Shown here one piece after another: positions 2,293 through 11,130 of a stretch of 64,000 nucleotides of DNA (position 1 is its first letter; every line of letters begins with the position of its first letter). A program made the position numbers and the translations under genes. The stretch comes from Candidatus Latescibacterota bacterium (GTDB taxonomy: Bacteria; Latescibacterota; UBA2968; UBA8231): contig OZ241362.1 of the NCBI GenBank assembly GCA_965200315.1, positions 3,616,001 through 3,680,000 of the forward strand, read 5' to 3'. The notes beneath the pieces were generated by a model. The model worked only from the letters and a program-made list of their open reading frames with translations, was not told the origin of the DNA and did no database searches.

Positions 2293-3698
2293 CAGGTGAT
2301 GCGGAAGTAGTCCACGAGGGCGCAGCGGCGCTGGCGGGTAAAGGTGCGCGGCGACGTCAGCCCCTCGCCCGTAGGCCCGGCGATGGAGTACGTCCCAAAG
2401 CCCTCGCCGCCCAAGCCAACCCCGGCGTAGGAAGGACCGTTCTTGACGAAAATGGTGGTATCCACGGCGCGGGCCATGTTGTGCATGTTTTCGATGTTGC
2501 GCGAATGGATCACGGCCGTGTGCCCGTAGCCGTGCTCGGAGATGACGGCCTCGCGGATGGCTTGGTCAATGCTGGGCACACGCACAATCGGCAGAAAGGG
2601 CATCATCTGCTCCTCGCGCACGAAGACATGGTTGGCGTCCGTCTCGCCAACGAGCATGCGCAGCGACGAGTCGAGCCGCAGGCCGATGCGCTCGCCCAGC
2701 ACGGCAGCGTCGCGCCCCACCAACTCGCGGTTCGCTGCGAGATGCCCGTCTGGCCCTGTGCCAAAGGCCACCTGCGCGAGGGCCTCGATCTGCCGCGCAT
2801 CGAGCTCGTACGCGTTGTATTGGACCATCTGCCGCTTGAGCTCGTCGGCAATGGAAGCGACGGCAAAGACTTGCTTCTCGCCGATGCAGAGGATGTTGTT
2901 GTCGAAGGCCCCCCCGTCGATGATGTCGCGTGCGGCCTTGGCCAAATCGGCCGTTTCATCGACGACCACGGGCGGATTGCCCGGCCCGGCGATGATGGCC
3001 TTTTTGGGGCTGCCCAGCGCGGCCTTGGCCACGCCCGGCCCGCCGGTGACCAGCAGGAGGCAGATGCCCGGGTGGTTGAACAGTTCGTTGGCCGTCTCAA
3101 TGGTCGGCGTTTCGACCGCGGTTACTAAGTTGGCCGGCCCGCCAGCCGCGCCGATGGCTTGATTGATCAAGCCCACCGCGAACATGGAGACCTTTCTACC
3201 CGCCGGATGTACGTTGAAGACGACTGAGTTGCCGGCGGCGACAATGCAAATGGCGTTGTTGACCATCGTCGGCACGGGATGCGTCGATGGAGTAACCGCG
3301 CCGATGACCCCGTAGGGAGCCATTTCGACTACGGTCAGCCCGTGATCGCCGGTCCACGAAATCGCCTCTAGGTCTTCGACGCCGGGCGTGGTGTCGGCCG
3401 CGACTTGGTGCTTGATGATCTTGTCGTCCAATCGCCCCATGCCCGTCTCGGCCAAGGCTCGCCGCGAAAACTCCTCGGCGTGGGCGTACGCTGTCTGCCG
3501 CAGGGCCTCGACGATCTTTTTGCGCTCCTCCAGCGACAAGGCGACCAACTGCTGCTGGGCGCGGGTCGCGCCTTGAACGGCCGCGTCAATCGTCGCGAAG
3601 ACCCCAGTGTCCCCGCCCTCGCTGCCACCGCTGACGACGCGCTGCACCACTTCTTCGACTATTTTGCGTACGTGTTCTTCGCTGACATTTTGGGACAC
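2292..3698 (-). CDS. CoA-acylating aldehyde dehydrogenase (EutE/PduP family) with N-terminal encapsulation peptide
   Basis: ETGMGR..DKIIK, GVIGAVTPSTHP, VTGGPGV, AGPGNPPVVVDETAD, FDNNILCIGEK, GPTGEGLTS. Confidence 0.95.
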   Translation of the reverse strand: MSQNVSEEHVRKIVEEVVQRVVSGGSEGGDTGVFATIDAAVQGATRAQQQLVALSLEERKKIVEALRQTAYAHAEEFSRRALAETGMGRLDDKIIKHQVAADTTPGVEDLEAISWTGDHGLTVVEMAPYGVIGAVTPSTHPVPTMVNNAICIVAAGNSVVFNVHPAGRKVSMFAVGLINQAIGAAGGPANLVTAVETPTIETANELFNHPGICLLLVTGGPGVAKAALGSPKKAIIAGPGNPPVVVDETADLAKAARDIIDGGAFDNNILCIGEKQVFAVASIADELKRQMVQYNAYELDARQIEALAQVAFGTGPDGHLAANRELVGRDAAVLGERIGLRLDSSLRMLVGETDANHVFVREEQMMPFLPIVRVPSIDQAIREAVISEHGYGHTAVIHSRNIENMHNMARAVDTTIFVKNGPSYAGVGLGGEGFGTYSIAGPTGEGLTSPRTFTRQRRCALVDYFRIT

Positions 3699-3838
3699 GC
3701 TTTTTTCCTCGCGTTGGATCTAAATATTTTAAGAATGGGGAAAATAGGCGGCCCCACTCTGAGCGTCAAGGTCATTTGACGGGCTGCTAGGCCTGCCTTA
3801 AGGTTTGTGCAAGTGCTGGAAAAACAAAGGAGAAAGAC

Positions 3839-4642
3839 ATGCGCATCATCCGCTTTATCGACGCTGACGACGCCGTCCGGTGGGGCCTCAAAGCCGAGGG
3901 CGGCCAAGCCTCCGTTCTCGCCGGCGATATCTTCGCCGAACTAGTGCCGACCGGCGAACAAGTGTCCGTCAAAAGACTGCTCGCTCCGCTGGCCCCGACC
4001 AACATTTTCTGCATTGGGCTAAACTACCGAGAGCACGCGGCCGAATCCGGCCTCGAACCGCCCGAGCAGCCCGTCGTCTTTGCCAAGCCCACGAGCGCGG
4101 TCTGCGGCCCGGGCGACCCGATTTTGCTGCCAGCCTGCTGCCGCCGCGGCCCGGAAGTTGACTACGAGTGCGAGCTCGCGGTGGTAATCGGCAAGGCCGC
4201 CCGCAATGTGGCGCGGGCCGACGCCCTCAGCTACGTGCTCGGATATACGTGCGCCAACGACGTCTCGGCCCGCAAGTGGCAGCTCCACGGCGGCGGCGGC
4301 CAGTGGATCCGCGGCAAGGGCTTTGACACCTTTTGCCCTTTGGGACCGGTGCTGGTCACAGCCGACGAAATCCCCGACCCGCAAACCCTCGGCATCCGCA
4401 CGATCCTCAACGGCGCGACCATGCAGGACCACACCACCGGCGACATGATCTTCACGGTCGCCGAACTGATCGAATTCCTCAGCCAAGATACGACCTTGCT
4501 GCCGGGCACGGTCATCCTCACCGGCACTCCGCAGGGCGTGGGTTTTGCGCGCAAACCTCCCGTGTGGCTCGCAGCCGGCGACGAGGTCATCGTCGAAATA
4601 GATCAGATCGGCCAATTGCAAAACCCGGTGGAAGCGGCCTAG
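3839..4642 (+). CDS. Fumarylacetoacetate hydrolase family protein
   Basis: CIGLNYREH, VDYECELAVVIG, NDVSAR, KGFDTFCPLGP, TGTPQGVG. Confidence 0.93.
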   Translation: MRIIRFIDADDAVRWGLKAEGGQASVLAGDIFAELVPTGEQVSVKRLLAPLAPTNIFCIGLNYREHAAESGLEPPEQPVVFAKPTSAVCGPGDPILLPACCRRGPEVDYECELAVVIGKAARNVARADALSYVLGYTCANDVSARKWQLHGGGGQWIRGKGFDTFCPLGPVLVTADEIPDPQTLGIRTILNGATMQDHTTGDMIFTVAELIEFLSQDTTLLPGTVILTGTPQGVGFARKPPVWLAAGDEVIVEIDQIGQLQNPVEAA

Positions 4643-4645
4643 CGC

Positions 4646-4966
4646 TCACGCTTCCTTGAACATTCCGAAGGCAAAGGCTTCGGGTAGCTCCTCAAAGATA
4701 ATCTCCCCCTCGTCGTCGGTCTCCAACAACTGGGCCATGTAGTCGTACCATTTTTCTAGGATGGGAACTTGGCGGCTCTTGAGCCAGTGTTCCTCGGTCG
4801 GGGCGACCGCGTGGATGACGAGGTGTTCGCCCAAGCGGTAGATAGCCATGCTGACCTCGTTGTCGGTCATGCTGTCGGCGATTTCGGGCCACAGGTCGTC
4901 GTGGGCCTGTTTGTACTCGGCGTACGCATTGGGGCGCAGCCGCATGGCCAAGCCAATTGAATACAT
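4646..4966 (-). CDS. rhaM: L-rhamnose mutarotase family protein
   Basis: M.LRP....EY...HD.LWPE and W..YM..L pattern; 106 aa. Confidence 0.75.
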   Translation of the reverse strand: MYSIGLAMRLRPNAYAEYKQAHDDLWPEIADSMTDNEVSMAIYRLGEHLVIHAVAPTEEHWLKSRQVPILEKWYDYMAQLLETDDEGEIIFEELPEAFAFGMFKEA

Positions 4967-5072
4967 GATGGTCTCCTTAATCGTTAGGGAATTGATAAAT
5001 ATGCGAATTAATTAAGAGATATTCAGAAAATGACGTAAAGTTCTTTTTTTCTATCTCTTAGCCATTTTTTCC

Positions 5073-5102
5073 TTGACAATATATCACCTTGAAAGTGAAA
5101 CT
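5073..5102 (+). promoter_or_regulatory. Putative sigma70 promoter (-35 TTGACA, weak -10 GAAACT)
   Basis: Exact TTGACA at 5073-5078 after an AT-rich tract; -10 imperfect. Confidence 0.5.
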
Positions 5103-5107
5103 AAAAG

Positions 5108-5522
5108 GCAGTCAAAAACCGTGCAAAGTAAATTGCACATCACCAAGGAGAGGAGGGCCTCATACAATGATTCTCTTCACACGTCAATCCTCGTGTAGTC
5201 TCAGGAGCCAGTTCCCCGATGGGAGCGGCCATAAGGTCCCAAACATGCGGGCTACGAACAGCATCCGACCGTTGCGCGTTCGTCCCAATCCCTAGGATAC
5301 ACGCACGACTCTTCAGGTTGTGTGCATCGGCTGGCTAAAACGCACAGCCGAATCGGGAACTCACCTCGCACTCGCATCGTCTTAGGCGATTGATTGCGTG
5401 TGCAAGGGCTTTCCCACAGGGTTTTCGGGACAGTGCTTTCGAGAAGGAGGGCACTTTTGCGTCCCGGAAACCGGCGATACATCGAATCGATTTCGATACA
5501 GCCGCTTTCCAGCGGCTTTTTT
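5108..5522 (+). ncRNA. Candidate large structured non-coding RNA, family not recognised
   Basis: Nested complementary segments (GTGCAA/TTGCAC, CACACG/CGTGTG, TCAATC/GATTGA, GTTCCCCGAT/ATCGGGAAC, ACGAAC/GTTCGT, CGGCTG/CAGCCG, GGTTTTCGGGAC/GTCCCGGAAACC) between a promoter and a terminator. Confidence 0.55.
5500..5522 (+). terminator. Rho-independent terminator
   Basis: AGCCGCT-TTCC-AGCGGCT followed by a T-tract. Confidence 0.8.
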
Positions 5523-5609
5523 GATGGCCGTGGCGCAAAAATGCTGCGGCTTTTTTCGTTGAATTTCGTCGAACTTCGCACCAATTGAAGATCTGGAGAG
5601 AAACAACTC

Positions 5610-5867
5610 ATGCGCAAAATCGAGCCAGAACGCATCAAGCGCGCGGCGCGCATCTACGCGAGCAACCAAGAAGCCAGCCGTGCGCTGGGTATCGCCCCGG
5701 GCAGTTTCAGCCGGCTCTGCCGGCTCTACAACATCGAAACCCCTTATGCGCGCAAGCGGCGGCGGCGCGAGGAGTTCGGTCGCCAGCGCGACAGCGATCT
5801 CTTAGAAGACATCGACATCGACATGCAAGATATCGAGATGCTAGAGGAAGTTCTCGACCTCAACTAA
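5610..5867 (+). CDS. Small HTH-like protein with Arg run and acidic tail
   Basis: GGAGAG RBS; SNQEASRALGIAPGSFSRLCR resembles an HTH; own terminator. Confidence 0.75.
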   Translation: MRKIEPERIKRAARIYASNQEASRALGIAPGSFSRLCRLYNIETPYARKRRRREEFGRQRDSDLLEDIDIDMQDIEMLEEVLDLN

Positions 5868-5892
5868 TAGGCATCACACACTGCGCTCGGCC

Positions 5893-5940
5893 AGCGGGGA
5901 GTTGGTGGACGTTTTCGTCCGCTAGCTCCCCGCTTTTTTT
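5893..5940 (+). terminator. Long-stem rho-independent terminator
   Basis: AGCGGGGAGTTGGTGGAC / GTCCGCTAGCTCCCCGCT followed by a T-tract. Confidence 0.85.
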
Positions 5941-6087
5941 AACAAGCGGTGCGCGACGAGTATTGTAAGGGCAGTTGAAGGGAAAGGGGTGGTGCGAATC
6001 TATGTTGAGGTGGTTCATTTTTGTATATTTTTTGCTGAAAGGAAATTCGCATATCGCGCAATCAAACGACAAGAGAAGAGGGTTGCC

Positions 6088-6203
6088 ATGCTCAGCCCTA
6101 CGCCGGCAGTCAAGTTCACCTATCTATGAGGATTATCAGCACACCCCGGATGACCGGCGCTACGAGTTATTGGCTGGATGGAGGTACTCTTGAGGTGGTG
6201 CCT
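6088..6203 (+). pseudogene. Uma2/DUF820 endonuclease 5' remnant
   Basis: Removing two 4-bp insertions gives MLSPTPAVKFTYEDYQHTPDDRRYELLDGGTLEVVP. Confidence 0.7.
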
Positions 6204-6328
6204 GTACGGCGAAAGACTGACGATGGTCTCGCCGTTGAATCTAAACGAGATTTTTGGGGTGTGAGGAGGCATTCAAAAGAGTGCCGCCATGCACAGCATA
6301 TAGTGATCACCCTACAAAGGAGGAAATC

Positions 6329-8971
6329 ATGCCTAGCCCAAAATCATTACAACAGATCTGCCGCAATACTTTGCCGCTGATGTTGCAGCAGGCAAATGGG
6401 CAGGAAATGATGGCGGCGGTGCGAGATGTGGCACAAACCGATCGCTGGAATTCGTTTGACCGCTTCGGCGAAACGACCGCCACGCTAACTAGCCGCTACG
6501 AGGCCACTGGCGCACGCGTGGAGGTCGAATCCATCCAGACCGGAGGGCGGCTGGGGTCGGGCCGGTGGATCATCCGCGAGGCCGCCGATGTCGCGGGTGC
6601 GACCGTGGATGTGGTACATCCGCTCGCCGAGCGGGTGCTGGATTGGCAGGAGAATCCCTGGCACGTCATTCAGTGGAGCGCGGCGACCCCGGCGAGCGGC
6701 TTGCGGCTGCGGCTCGTGATTCTCGACCAAATCGAAGACATCCAACGCCAGCCAACCGACGGACTCACCAGTGCGATTGTGCTGACCAAGCTAGATCCGC
6801 GTGCCCACCTAGGTCTTTTGGCCGCCAAGGGGGCCGCCGCCGTCATCACCGACCGTTTGGTTCCCAATCTGCCCAAGGCAGTGGCGTGGACCAAATTCGG
6901 ATGGGGTGCCATTCCCCTCGAACATGCGGCGGCGCGGTTGGTGGGTTTTGTGATCTCTGAGCAACAAGGGAAGCGGTTGCGCCGGCTAGCGCAGCAGCGC
7001 GGCCCCCTAACCCTGCACGTAAGAGCCGACATCCGCAAATACGTCGGCAGTCACGACGTGGTCAGCGGCATCATCGAGGGAGCAGGCGATCCGCAGGACG
7101 AAGTGTGGGCCATCGCGCACAGCGCCGAGCCGGGGGCCATAGACAACGCTTCGGGCGTGGCCACCACCTTGGAGATCGCCCGCGTGATCGAAGGGCTTAT
7201 CCGGGCGGGCAAACTCGTGCGCCCCAAGCGCACCATTCGCCTGCTCAATGCCTATGAGTGCTACGGGTTCTTCGCCTATCTAGAGAGGGTGCGGCGCTTG
7301 CAGACCCCTTTGGCCGGCGTGTGTATCGACACAGTCGGCTCCCAGCCCGCCATCTGCGATGGCCGGCTGGAGTGGCACGCGACCATCCCCATGTCGTCAG
7401 GTTTTGTCGATCGAGTCGGTGCGGCTATCTTACGGGCCGGAGTGCGGCAACACAAGCCTCGCTATCGAGTGCATCTAGAGCGATTCATGTCGACGGCTGA
7501 CACCTTGATCGGCGATCCCCAGTACGGATTTCCCTGCCCTTGGATCACCACGCATCACCTCAAGAGCGGGCGCGGCTTCGACGCCTACCACTCCTCGGCC
7601 GATGTGGAAGCACTGCTCAGTCCGCGGGGGCTGGAGACCTGCGCGGCCTCAATGGCAGCCTATCTGTACTACTTGGCCGACATGGGCAGCCGCGAAGTGG
7701 GGGAGTTGGTCCGCACTGAGACCCAGCATTTTCTCTCCGTATTACAACAGAAAAAGCGACCCCGAGCCGAGGCCGAGTACGTGCGCGAGGCACACAGCCG
7801 CAGCGTGCGACGATTGGTGCGCTGGCTCTGGGGAGGCAGTCGGCGCGAGGTCTTGGAGGCCATGGACGAAAGCGAGCGGCAAGTGGCGACCGCCGCAGCC
7901 GAAACCGCGCTACCGGACAAGCGAGCGCGGCGCACGGCCCAAGCGCGGCTAGTGCCACGGCGCACGGCCGTGCTCTCACCGACCAGCGAAAACACGCCAG
8001 CCGCGGTCAATGCGCGCATCTCGGCTGCACAGCTACCGCCGTGGGCGCTGTTTTGGGCCGATGGACGCCGGAATTTAGGCGAAATCGCCGAGTGCATTGC
8101 CTGCGAGGAAGCCGACTATCCGGCCGGGCCGCGGACGGAAGGGCCCGTCGCTGTTGATCGGGTTCACAAGTACTTTGCAGCACACGCTGAATTGGGCTAT
8201 GCCGAGTTGACCGACCCGGCTAACATGCTCGGCCGCAGGGAACTAGTGAAGGATTTGCGCCGCTTGGGCGTCACCCCAGGCATGGATCTGATGGTCCACA
8301 GTTCCCTGTCGGCCATCGGCTCTGTCGAGGGCGGCGCTGAGACCGTCGTCGATGCGCTCTTGCAGGCGGTTGGCAAGCGCGGGACCCTGCTGGCACCTTC
8401 GTTCAATCACCGCACGGCGAAAGTCTTCAACCGGCTGACCACGCCCACCACCAACGGCACCATCCCGGACGCGCTGTGGCGGCGCACCAAAGCCGAGCGC
8501 AGCATGCATCCCACTCACGCGGTAGCGGCGATTGGTCCGCGGGCCAGCGATTATTGCCGAGGGCACCTCGAAGCCGGCATCTGGGCTCCAGATAGCCCGA
8601 TCGGCAAATTGGTACACAGCGGCGGCTACATTCTCGCGCTGGGCACGACGCACGATACGAGCACGGCCTACCACGTGGCCGAGATGTCCGTGCCCTGCGG
8701 CTGCATTGAATCCTTTGCAATTCCAGACCGCATCGTGCGCGACGACGGGACCGTGGACGAGGTCTTGGGGCTGGCCTTTCGCAGCGGCCCCTGCCCGGTT
8801 CCAACCCACAAGCTAGACTCCACCCTCGACCGGAGGAAGTTGCAGCGGCGGGGCAAGGTCGGGCAGGCCGAATGCGAATTGGTAAAGGCCCACGACCTGT
8901 GGCAGGTGCGGCGCGAACATCTGCGGCGCGTCTGTCCCACTTGCGCCGTCAAGCCCCAGACCGCACGGTGA
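6329..8971 (+). CDS. M28/DUF4910-like aminopeptidase domain fused to a C-terminal AAC(3)-family acetyltransferase
   Basis: AGGAGG RBS before ATG 6329; AHSAEPGAIDNASG, YHSSAD; then LMVHSSLSAIG.VEGGAETVVDAL, RSMHPTHAVAAIG, TAYHVAE. Confidence 0.85.
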   Translation: MPSPKSLQQICRNTLPLMLQQANGQEMMAAVRDVAQTDRWNSFDRFGETTATLTSRYEATGARVEVESIQTGGRLGSGRWIIREAADVAGATVDVVHPLAERVLDWQENPWHVIQWSAATPASGLRLRLVILDQIEDIQRQPTDGLTSAIVLTKLDPRAHLGLLAAKGAAAVITDRLVPNLPKAVAWTKFGWGAIPLEHAAARLVGFVISEQQGKRLRRLAQQRGPLTLHVRADIRKYVGSHDVVSGIIEGAGDPQDEVWAIAHSAEPGAIDNASGVATTLEIARVIEGLIRAGKLVRPKRTIRLLNAYECYGFFAYLERVRRLQTPLAGVCIDTVGSQPAICDGRLEWHATIPMSSGFVDRVGAAILRAGVRQHKPRYRVHLERFMSTADTLIGDPQYGFPCPWITTHHLKSGRGFDAYHSSADVEALLSPRGLETCAASMAAYLYYLADMGSREVGELVRTETQHFLSVLQQKKRPRAEAEYVREAHSRSVRRLVRWLWGGSRREVLEAMDESERQVATAAAETALPDKRARRTAQARLVPRRTAVLSPTSENTPAAVNARISAAQLPPWALFWADGRRNLGEIAECIACEEADYPAGPRTEGPVAVDRVHKYFAAHAELGYAELTDPANMLGRRELVKDLRRLGVTPGMDLMVHSSLSAIGSVEGGAETVVDALLQAVGKRGTLLAPSFNHRTAKVFNRLTTPTTNGTIPDALWRRTKAERSMHPTHAVAAIGPRASDYCRGHLEAGIWAPDSPIGKLVHSGGYILALGTTHDTSTAYHVAEMSVPCGCIESFAIPDRIVRDDGTVDEVLGLAFRSGPCPVPTHKLDSTLDRRKLQRRGKVGQAECELVKAHDLWQVRREHLRRVCPTCAVKPQTAR

Positions 8972-11130
8972 ACAGATCGCTCCCCTCTCCCTATGGCCGG
9001 CACCTCCAAGGTAGCCAAGACGACAAACTCACCGATGCCGCAGGCCGTTCGCATCTGACGCTGCGCGGCTTTTGGGTCGGCGCGTTCCTCAGCTTTTTTC
9101 TGTCCATTGGCGCGCCCTACGCCAACATGGCGATGCGGGCGACCAATATGGCCTTCGATTTCAATACTCCGGGGGCCATTTTTCTATTTTTGGTGCTGGT
9201 CGGCTTGCTCAATACGCTCTTCAAGCTCGCCGCCCGCGACTTCCGCCTAGCGGTGGGGCTGGCCCTGCTCGCCACGGGCGGCTTCTGCGGCTATTGGACC
9301 AGCCGCGGCATGGTCGATTGGTACTCGCCTGGCTTTTGGTTTGGGGCCTTCCTCGCCCTCTTTTCACTGTGGAACGTACCGGTGGTACAGCGCGGCGGTA
9401 CGCTCGCGCTCAACCGCGCCGAACTCGTGCTGGTGTACGCGATGTTGCTGGTCGTCTCCGCCCTCTGCACCATGGGGCTGACCCAGCAACTTTTGCCAGC
9501 TCTCACCGGCATTTTCTACTACGCCTCTCCAGCCAACCAATGGGCCGAAAAGCTCTTTCCGCTCTTTCCCTCGCGGCGCATCCTCGTCGATGATGGCACC
9601 GGCAACCGCGGCTTTTACGAGGGCGGCGCGCTCGCCGACATTCCCTACGCCACTTGGGTCGAGCCCCTGTGCTGGTGGGCACTGCTACTCCTCTCGCTGT
9701 ACGTGGCTATGGTATCGACGGCCGTGATCTTGCGCCGACAGTGGGTCGAGCACGAGCGGCTGGCCTATCCGCTGACCCAGCTCGGGGTGGCCATCGTGCA
9801 AGGCGAACGCGGCACCGGGCTGTTCAACGGCTTTCTCAAGCACGGTATCCTGTGGTGGGGCGCAGCCTTGCCGCTCGCGTACGGCAGCCTCAAGGCTCTG
9901 CACCAATACTACCCGTCCTTGCCCGGCTTCGGCCTGATTTGGTTTCTGCCGTTTATCGGCCAGCAAAACCTGCAAATCTGGATCAGCTTCGCGCTCGTCG
10001 GCTTTTCCTATCTCATTAGCACTCAAATAGCGGCCGGCATCTGGATCTTCTATCTGCTCTCCAAAGTAGAAGCCGAATTCCTCGCCCTATCTGGCCTCAA
10101 ATCCACTAGCAAATTCGTCTATGGGGTCTCGTACGAGCCGCTCTTGGCCTATCAGGGCGGCGGCGCGCTCATCGCCATGGTGCTCTTGGGGCTGTGGACG
10201 GGGCGCGTCCACTTGGGGAACGTATGGCGCAAGGCCCTCGACCGCCATGCTAACATCGACGACAGCGATGAAATCACGTCCTATCGAGCGGCCGTGATCG
10301 GAGTACTCTTCGGCACCGGAGGCATCGTCGGCTGGCTGTGGCTGATGGGCACCCCGCTTTGGGTCGGCGCACTCTTTGCGGTGGTGGCCCTGTTGGTGTT
10401 TATCGGCATCTCGCGGGTCGTGTGCGAGGCGGGCCTAGCAGCCATCCGCTCGCCCATGATCGCCCCAGACCTCATCGTGCAGGGCATTGGCTCACAGACG
10501 ATCGGTGCCGCTGGCGTTTTCAACCTCTCCTTTGCCTATATCTGGTCGGCCGACATTCGCATCTTCCTGCTGGCCATGGTCGCCAATGGCTTGAAGCTGA
10601 TCCAAAACATGGACCGCCGCAGTCGGCGAGTCGTCTTCTGGGCGCTGGTGGCGGCCATCTTCATCGGCGTGACGGGCTCCTGCTGGATGGTCTTCCACCT
10701 CGCCTACAAGTACGGGGGCATCAACCTCGATGGCTGGCGTTTTCACGGCGGCCCATCGACCATCTACAACGCGGCGCGACGCGCACTAGAACCAGCCGGA
10801 GCCGACTGGTTGGGCTTGGGGTTTTTCGCTGGTGGAGCCGTGGTCATGGTCCTTTTGACTTGGGCGCGGCATCACGTCTTGTGGTGGCCCTTCCATCCAA
10901 TCGGATTCCCGATTGGCGCAAACTTCATGCTCGACAAAATCTGGGCTTGCGTACTCTTGGCTTGGGTACTGAAGAAGCTGATCTTGCGTTTTGGCGGAGC
11001 GGCGCACTATCGGACGAGCCAGCATTTCTTCATGGGTATGATTATGGGCGAGGCCCTGTGCAACGGGCTGTGGCTGGTCATCGACTACTTCACCGGCAGG
11101 GTCGGCAACGCCGTCTTCATTCTGGGGTAA
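8968..11130 (+). CDS. Polytopic membrane protein, DUF6785/DUF6784-like (possible transporter)
   Basis: GTGA overlap with the upstream gene; RRQWVEHERLAYPL, WWPFHPIGF, many TM segments. Confidence 0.8.
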   Translation: MNRSLPSPYGRHLQGSQDDKLTDAAGRSHLTLRGFWVGAFLSFFLSIGAPYANMAMRATNMAFDFNTPGAIFLFLVLVGLLNTLFKLAARDFRLAVGLALLATGGFCGYWTSRGMVDWYSPGFWFGAFLALFSLWNVPVVQRGGTLALNRAELVLVYAMLLVVSALCTMGLTQQLLPALTGIFYYASPANQWAEKLFPLFPSRRILVDDGTGNRGFYEGGALADIPYATWVEPLCWWALLLLSLYVAMVSTAVILRRQWVEHERLAYPLTQLGVAIVQGERGTGLFNGFLKHGILWWGAALPLAYGSLKALHQYYPSLPGFGLIWFLPFIGQQNLQIWISFALVGFSYLISTQIAAGIWIFYLLSKVEAEFLALSGLKSTSKFVYGVSYEPLLAYQGGGALIAMVLLGLWTGRVHLGNVWRKALDRHANIDDSDEITSYRAAVIGVLFGTGGIVGWLWLMGTPLWVGALFAVVALLVFIGISRVVCEAGLAAIRSPMIAPDLIVQGIGSQTIGAAGVFNLSFAYIWSADIRIFLLAMVANGLKLIQNMDRRSRRVVFWALVAAIFIGVTGSCWMVFHLAYKYGGINLDGWRFHGGPSTIYNAARRALEPAGADWLGLGFFAGGAVVMVLLTWARHHVLWWPFHPIGFPIGANFMLDKIWACVLLAWVLKKLILRFGGAAHYRTSQHFFMGMIMGEALCNGLWLVIDYFTGRVGNAVFILG

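Follow-up and report, generated by a model that had tools for sequence, protein, structure and literature searches.

The trp and his leaders of enterobacteria are the classical leader-peptide attenuators, the his leader carrying several alternating hairpins, and in transcriptional riboswitches it is the P1 helix that alternates with the expression platform. TnaC and the SecM-type arrest peptides are regulatory nascent peptides that act at or near the stop codon. The element described here resembles each of these systems in part, and it was found in a stretch of 64,000 nucleotides (nt) of the genome of Candidatus Latescibacterota bacterium (assembly GCA_965200315.1, contig OZ241362.1, positions 3,616,001 to 3,680,000), which we call the window and whose own numbering is used throughout. 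It occupies positions 5073-5557 of the + strand, and we read it, with a probability of roughly 60%, as the promoter and the long 5' leader of the helix-turn-helix (HTH) gene at 5610-5867, the leader working as a ribosome-linked transcription attenuator of unusually large size. A first-pass annotation, made from the letters of the sequence, had instead proposed a standalone structured RNA for this region.

As in the trp and his attenuators, a short leader open reading frame (uORF) preceded by a Shine-Dalgarno (SD) sequence is placed among mutually exclusive helices, and its position with respect to them would decide whether an intrinsic terminator forms before the regulated gene. The differences from these leaders are several. 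The run of regulatory codons is absent here, the leader measures about 450 nt instead of about 150 nt, and a four-way junction of 112-136 nt is interposed between the stop codon of the uORF and the switching strand, the stop codon itself being located inside the basal helix of that junction. Two terminators are arranged in tandem in this genus, the regulated gene codes for a small HTH protein and is not a biosynthetic operon, the predicted polarity is one in which a ribosome located at the uORF end promotes termination, and no leader family of Rfam is matched. The logic of ribosome-mediated attenuation is familiar, whereas the size, the stop codon within the basal helix of a junction, the missing codon run and the nature of the regulated gene are not.

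The intergenic span that holds the element (4967-5609) is bounded on one side by a rhaM-like gene on the - strand (4646-4966; PF05336, E 1.2e-14) and on the other by the HTH gene, an 85-amino-acid (aa) open reading frame on the + strand. The leader RNA is single-copy in its own genome; BLASTN recovered full-length copies with 88-93% identity in 25 of the 30 other genomes of the genus, and none in 30 genomes of other genera. The neighbourhood as a whole is syntenic in these 25 genomes, so that identity alone means little. Across 5010-5940 the majority identity of the alignment columns is 0.95-0.98 in the 25 genus copies, against about 0.87 in the flanking genes, and conservation collapses past about 5940. 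By this profile, the conserved unit comprises the promoter region, the leader, the HTH gene and the terminator of the latter, a 19-bp stem (5893-5934) followed by T7, at 5893-5941 of the + strand, with which the module ends. The variable columns of the HTH gene are distributed over the codon phases as 13/7/61, that is, with the periodicity of a coding sequence. Its product matches HTH_28 weakly (PF13518, E 0.0028, under the curated cut-off) and has a basic RKRRRR stretch and an acidic tail; NCBIfam gave no match, PHROG only weak ones, and no useful relative was found in the PDB.

The distribution of the element was followed with R1, a covariance model of the long hairpin at 5420-5472, the most conserved RNA block, in the family set of 76 genomes. 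Strong matches (34.7-83 bits, the window giving 83 bits) were obtained in 34 of these genomes, belonging to five genera: 26/31 genomes of the window's own genus, g1 (its own genome included), 5/5 of g24, 1/2 of g7, 1/1 of g5 and 1/8 of g22. In the rest of the class, none of the 31 genomes of f2 or the 3 genomes of f3 had a match, and a weak one of 26 bits was seen in 1 of the 22 genomes of f4. Five weak matches of 22-26 bits inside the family (L111-L115) were taken as chance, as no HTH gene lies within about 1 kb of them. Every leader copy read in sequence is found between a CTTGACA box and an HTH orthologue. In the other genera the layout, from 5' to 3', consists of a T-rich tract with CTTGACA, about 80-110 nt of leader, an SD with a uORF of 31-41 codons that has TAG as its stop, then 112-136 nt of GC-rich hairpins, the long hairpin with its conserved 3' strand, one or two intrinsic terminators, and finally the HTH gene's own SD and start codon. 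The HTH protein family has 1-11 matches in 71 of the 76 genomes, three of them in this genome. The 5 genomes of the genus that do not have the RNA do not have the HTH orthologue either and carry other genes beside their rhaM; their best HTH match resembles the ssb-linked paralogue, with 71-72% identity over residues 1/2-54/62 (the context was checked in G017 only).

This paralogue is represented in the window's genome by G000:C1:3830703-3830873 (L073; also L074-L076) and is 68-71% identical over about 57 residues. In loci from three genera its operon is made up of a promoter, a membrane-like open reading frame of 40-50 aa ending in YL[AT]-stop, the HTH gene and ssb; in this genome the preceding membrane-like frame has 47 aa, and there is no long leader. 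Two further genera (L070 in G071 and L077 in G064) have HTH orthologues with leaders of about 450-500 nt, a CTTGACA box and two tandem terminators. These leaders contain a long open reading frame that ends in DPGG-stop just ahead of the first terminator and give no R1 match, and they may, judging by their layout, represent a diverged version of this element.

The promoter-like region (5073-5101, + strand) comprises a TTGACA -35 box at 5073-5078, which follows a T-rich tract, a 17-nt spacer and a weak -10-like TGAAAC at 5096-5101. The sequence CCTTGACA is invariant at this place in 25/25 genus copies, and CTTGACA occupies the matching place in 10/10 loci read in other genera, so placed that transcription would start near 5109. 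At the opposite end of the leader, intrinsic termination is encoded directly before the HTH gene by two structures on the + strand. Terminator T1 (5500-5523) has a 7-bp stem and a 4-nt loop (5500-5517) followed by T6; within the genus it does not vary, and it is present in g1, G078 and G034, being absent in g24 and G061. Terminator T2 (5526-5557) has a 10-bp stem (5526-5551), again followed by T6, and is common to all five genera; 95.0% of the cells of its helix are paired and 3/10 pairs are changed on both sides. A terminator scan of 4600-6300 yielded three + strand terminators, namely T1, T2 and that of the HTH gene itself. In g24, 21 nt separate the end of the T2 T-tract from the HTH start codon. 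A promoter of its own would not fit into this space, and therefore the HTH gene of this genus would be transcribed only by read-through.

The uORF (5167-5295, + strand) has 42 codons, from the ATG at 5167 to the TAG stop codon at 5293-5295, and 9 nt ahead of its start there is a purine tract similar to a Shine-Dalgarno sequence (GGAGAGGAGGG, 5147-5157, + strand). This tract is predicted to pair with the first codons, in a hairpin that appears in the minimum free energy (MFE) fold and in the RNAalifold consensus, and a GAGG-type tract is located 6-10 nt ahead of an ATG in 9/9 lineage representatives. In the 25 genus copies the frame is always open, with 41-44 codons, and contains 53 variable columns; all its indels are multiples of 3, among them a deletion of 3 nt after which the stop codon is retained, and the indels of the leader outside the uORF measure 1, 2, 5, 6 and 18 nt. 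Equivalent uORFs of 31-41 codons were found in 8/8 copies of four other genera, and in these copies the stop codon always lies within or beside a GTCCYGG motif. Taken from sequence, these traits suggest that the uORF is translated. In common with TnaC and the SecM-type peptides, it is a short leader frame, and its tail, R-x-x-P-G-(R)-stop, is alike in three genera (TRSGPGR-stop, TRGSPGR-stop and LRGSPG-stop in g24, g5 and g7, with synonymous third-base changes), and TAG is the stop codon in 8/8 other-genus and 23/25 genus copies, the two remaining ones having TAA. Unlike in those peptides, the tail is not kept in this genus (RVRPNP-stop) or in G078 (SDSSRT-stop). Regulatory codon runs are present neither in the 9 lineage peptides nor in the 25 genus peptides, and an attenuator that senses an amino acid was rejected for this reason. 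A - strand frame at 5252..5653 was discarded too, since relatives carry indels of 1 and 5 nt that disrupt it.

The switch proposed for this leader is built on four regions of the + strand that compete for pairing. Region 1 (5274-5293), which includes the first base of the stop codon, provides the 5' strand of the basal helix (GCGC, GUCCC and CCCU), as seen in isolated folds and in the genus alignment. The middle domain (5302-5415), formed by three hairpins (5302-5324, 5327-5351 and 5355-5415), makes up the four-way junction together with this helix. Region 2 (5418-5436) is the 3' strand of the basal helix and, according to duplex and isolated-segment folds, also the 5' strand of the long hairpin (5420-5472), whose 3' strand is region 3 (5447-5472). 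Inside region 3, the segment GCACUUUUGCGUC (5451-5463), the proposed antiterminator, is complementary to region 4 (5532-5544), which corresponds to the 5' half and loop of T2.

These complementarities are conserved among lineages. When the segment from the end of the uORF to region 2 is folded in isolation, the MFE structure is the basal helix 1:2 with three hairpins in 9/9 sequences of five genera, the sequences themselves differing, and 112-136 nt separate the stop codon from region 2 throughout. In the 25 genus copies 99.6% of the cells of helix 1:2 are paired, and the changes are one-sided and pair-preserving only; in g24, 8/53 consensus pairs of the middle domain show compensatory changes. 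Shuffling of region 1 in its context (100 shuffles, G082 being left out as nearly identical to G086) gave z values of -2.2 to -3.0 in 6/8 sequences, with z -2.24 and 2/100 shuffles as low for the window, and a weak result in G034 (24/100) and G085 (16/100). Folds of the nascent RNA pair region 2 with the neighbourhood of the stop codon in 6/9 sequences. Further downstream, in an alignment of 16 sequences, the core helix of 2:3 plus T2 has 92.6% of its cells paired, with 7/22 pairs changed on both sides, and 3:4 has 91.1% paired, with 3/12 pairs changed on both sides (one of them C-G in 10 sequences and U-A in 6), against 28-51% in slid controls. The 5' half of T2 is the first or second partner of region 3, after region 2, in 5/9 sequences (the window, G078, G034, G061 and G084). 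Folding of the window from region 3 through T2 gave the antiterminator at -42.3 kcal/mol, compared with -31.3 kcal/mol when region 3 is blocked. Pairing with region 2 can, in these models, also explain the conserved nucleotides at the end of the uORF.

The model proposes that transcription would begin near 5109 and that the 42-codon uORF would then be translated. Its last codons and stop codon (region 1) would pair with region 2, giving the basal helix of the four-way junction; alternatively, region 2 would pair with region 3 to form the long hairpin, and region 3, if it is not engaged there, would pair with region 4. In the ON state, 1:2 and 3:4 would form and block T2, giving the polymerase the chance to read through into the HTH gene. 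In the OFF state, 2:3 and T2 would form (in this genus T1 as well), releasing a leader RNA of about 415-450 nt. A ribosome that has reached the end of the uORF would open up region 1, so that OFF is favoured, and low ribosome occupancy, or a factor that stabilises the junction, would favour ON. The terminated leader RNA of about 415-450 nt may accumulate. In Sinorhizobium meliloti, rnTrpL is reported to be a small RNA derived from an attenuator (PMC6614838), and the leader RNA released here by attenuation at T1 or T2 could likewise be a functional product.

Several results weigh against this model. The complementarity between antiterminator and terminator is conserved and covarying, yet equilibrium folds of the full leader keep the terminated, OFF state in 9/9 sequences, and when 2:3 is forbidden T2 is still predicted in all 9. 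As equilibrium never gives the ON state, the latter would need kinetic trapping or a stabilising factor. With region 3 free, T1 has a probability of 0.87 and T2 of 0.72; T1 is thus not predicted to be antiterminated, its control by the switch is unsupported, and, in these folds, T1 may be where most transcripts of this genus stop, whichever state is adopted. In the window, the MFE fold of the nascent RNA does not contain 1:2, and the fold that contains it is 3.5 kcal/mol worse. Swapping cognate for non-cognate duplexes did not discriminate (a cognate mean of -18.4 against -15.0 for 3:4), and duplex shuffles of 1:2 with crude windows were null in 3/7 sequences (the window, G078 and G034). The covariation comes from about five lineages, whose relatedness inflates the shuffle controls. 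Translation of the uORF, which we infer, is a further point: its peptide is not conserved between genera, and its variable columns fall in the three phases as 16/16/21, with no codon periodicity, so that selection would bear on the open frame and not on the peptide sequence. With regard to initiation, the first-pass annotation had assigned the RNA its own promoter, of which the conserved promoter-like box stands; no sigma-70-type site was called at 5073 by a consensus scan, because the -10 is poor. In this genus, moreover, there might be space for a second promoter in the 52 nt from the T-tract of T2 to the HTH start codon. As for expression, contigs from the RNA libraries of one study span both T1 and T2 and continue into the HTH gene (5126-5992, 3728-5894, 4485-5886 and 3693-5893), which is a weak hint of read-through, given that contigs from these 4 runs cover 3000-9000, flanking genes included, and transcript start, end and level are unreadable from them. 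The contigs of three runs stop at 5886-5894, at the beginning of the HTH terminator stem, and the fourth run has an assembly break at 5126-5150, close to the predicted transcription start, the contigs flanking it having depths of 5.2 and 9.65; both are hints only.

The failure to reach the ON state at equilibrium, and hence the need for a stabiliser, is also what would be expected of a riboswitch-like or protein-binding switch, in which the junction senses a metabolite or a protein, possibly the HTH protein, whose binding stabilises the P1-like basal helix, so that region 3 is released and T2 no longer terminates, the uORF being incidental or secondary. Like a riboswitch, the locus has a multi-helix junction closed by a helix whose 3' strand is common to the alternative hairpin that would decide between terminator and antiterminator. 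In all nine sequences of the five genera the switching strand closes a junction built in the same way, with the compensatory changes of g24, and the spacing of 112-136 nt between stop codon and region 2 is maintained. However, aptamers keep invariant core nucleotides, and here no such core is seen across genera: the loops of the middle domain and the junction sequences are the least conserved between them, and the domain is conserved in architecture only. No Rfam family was matched, either here or in the nine orthologous loci, and a sensor of this kind leaves unexplained why an SD-preceded frame ends inside the basal, P1-like helix in every copy. We consider it unlikely, although it survives better than the other alternatives. 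Equally doubtful is a combined form, a hybrid of riboswitch and leader-peptide attenuator of an undescribed class, where the junction would be the sensor for a metabolite or for the HTH protein, the terminating ribosome and the ligand would compete for the stop-codon helix, and the released leader of about 415-450 nt may persist as a stable RNA. If this were true, the output would integrate the translation status with a second signal.

Other features are those expected of a free-standing structured non-coding RNA of about 415-450 nt, with its own promoter, ended at T1 or T2 and acting in trans, the HTH gene being a separate neighbour. Such was the proposal of the first-pass annotation, and much of what it had described in the RNA itself is borne out. 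The + strand of 5100-5525 folds with an MFE of -170.5 kcal/mol, compared with a mean of -130.0 (standard deviation 6.3) for shuffled sequences (z -6.46, 0/100 as good); z is -4.97 for the - strand, and many invariant G-U pairs fit the + strand only, as had been noted. Its TTGACA (5073-5078) was found again, as were, by sequence and MFE, the hairpin that follows (5121-5138), those named GGCC/GGTC (5228-5239), ACGAAC/GTTCGT (5254-5284), GCACGAC/GTTGTGT (5302-5324) and CGGCTG/CAGCCG (5327-5351), the long hairpin with its inner stem (5420-5472), ATCGAA/TTCGAT (5481-5497), and the terminator formed by 5500-5517 and T6. The 5' hairpin at 5121-5138 (+ strand) has 5 pairs in RNAalifold, invariant in 24-25/25 copies. 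The long closing helices that had been drawn around the multibranch domain (5178-5189 with 5388-5402, and 5211-5220 with 5352-5360) fared differently: 83.9% of their cells pair in the 25 genus copies, with 0 compensatory pairs, and they were rejected, since three pairs are broken in 15, 19 and 21 of the 25 copies and 485/500 shuffles pair no worse. Over the whole of the genus copies RNAalifold reports compensatory changes in 2/125 pairs only, covariation being uninformative at this level because the copies are 88-93% alike.

The view that this is a large, conserved, structured + strand RNA of no known family also holds. Rfam 15 gave 0 matches at the gathering score in the 64-kb window, a best E-value of 1.2 in 4900-6300, and nothing at E <= 0.1 in the nine orthologous loci. 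RNase P RNA (302.7 bits) and transfer-messenger RNA (tmRNA; 204.4 bits) are encoded elsewhere in the genome, so both identities were rejected for this locus, as was 6S RNA, for which no match was obtained anywhere in the genome. In addition to the fold, the conserved promoter-like box, the two strong tandem terminators, a conservation above that of the flanking genes, a T1 predicted with a probability of 0.87-1.0 in either state, and the 52 nt that separate the T-tract of T2 from the HTH start codon in this genus would all suit an independent RNA. Two features are absent from the earlier description, the second terminator (5526-5551) and the SD with its 42-codon frame within the RNA (5167-5295). 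Against independence stand the conservation of this SD and frame, the strict co-occurrence with the HTH orthologue, both being absent together, the lack of room for a gene promoter in g24, and conserved helices that are mutually exclusive and involve the terminator. The RNA-library contigs that cross T1 and T2 count against it as well, as a weak point. A standalone RNA is thus probably the wrong description, and we give it somewhat less credit than the sensor discussed above.

A two-gene operon, in which 5167-5295 would be a small-protein gene expressed with the HTH gene through a structured spacer whose leaky terminators set a fixed product ratio, with no conditional switch, would account for a frame that is open in every copy, for the similar C-terminus of g24, g5 and g7 with its synonymous third-base changes, and for the small membrane-like frame (47 aa) before the paralogous HTH gene of the same genome, but it is the least probable of these explanations, for the peptide outside the tail is wholly different between genera, the tails of this genus and of G078 diverge too, codon-periodic constraint is absent, Pfam finds nothing in the peptide, and the conserved nucleotides at the end of the frame are explained by pairing with region 2.

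Some observations concern the surroundings of the module. Just upstream of the -35 box there is a perfect inverted repeat of 9 nt (TAAGAGATA at 5013-5021 and TATCTCTTA at 5052-5060), its arms 30 nt apart, in a block whose conservation in the genus is 0.94-0.97. It could be an operator, bound for example by the HTH protein, within the divergent promoter region that is common with rhaM. On the other side, the sequence right after the HTH terminator (5940-6330) is unalignable or missing in most of the 25 genus genomes (16-24/25 rows gapped) and constitutes a variable insertion point. An open reading frame of 905 aa at 6254-8971 shows an unusual fusion, a region similar to peptidase M28/DUF4910 (residues ~277-471) being joined to a C-terminal domain of the aminoglycoside 3-N-acetyltransferase type (PF02522, E 4.3e-44).

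A full-text literature search, with supplementary files outside its scope, found no paper on an element of this kind in Latescibacterota. To our knowledge, the phylum is known only from metagenome-assembled genomes, and nothing on its RNA regulation has therefore been tested experimentally. The attenuator model names concrete helices, and tests of it would need no culture of the organism, as a heterologous host or an in vitro system could serve. If it is true, the leader would represent a new and unusually large family of cis-regulatory RNA, not included in Rfam, with an uncommon design that places the uORF stop codon in the basal helix of its four-way junction, lets three helices compete in a chain and sets the terminators in tandem, and the small HTH protein family specific to this lineage would be a tightly controlled regulator.

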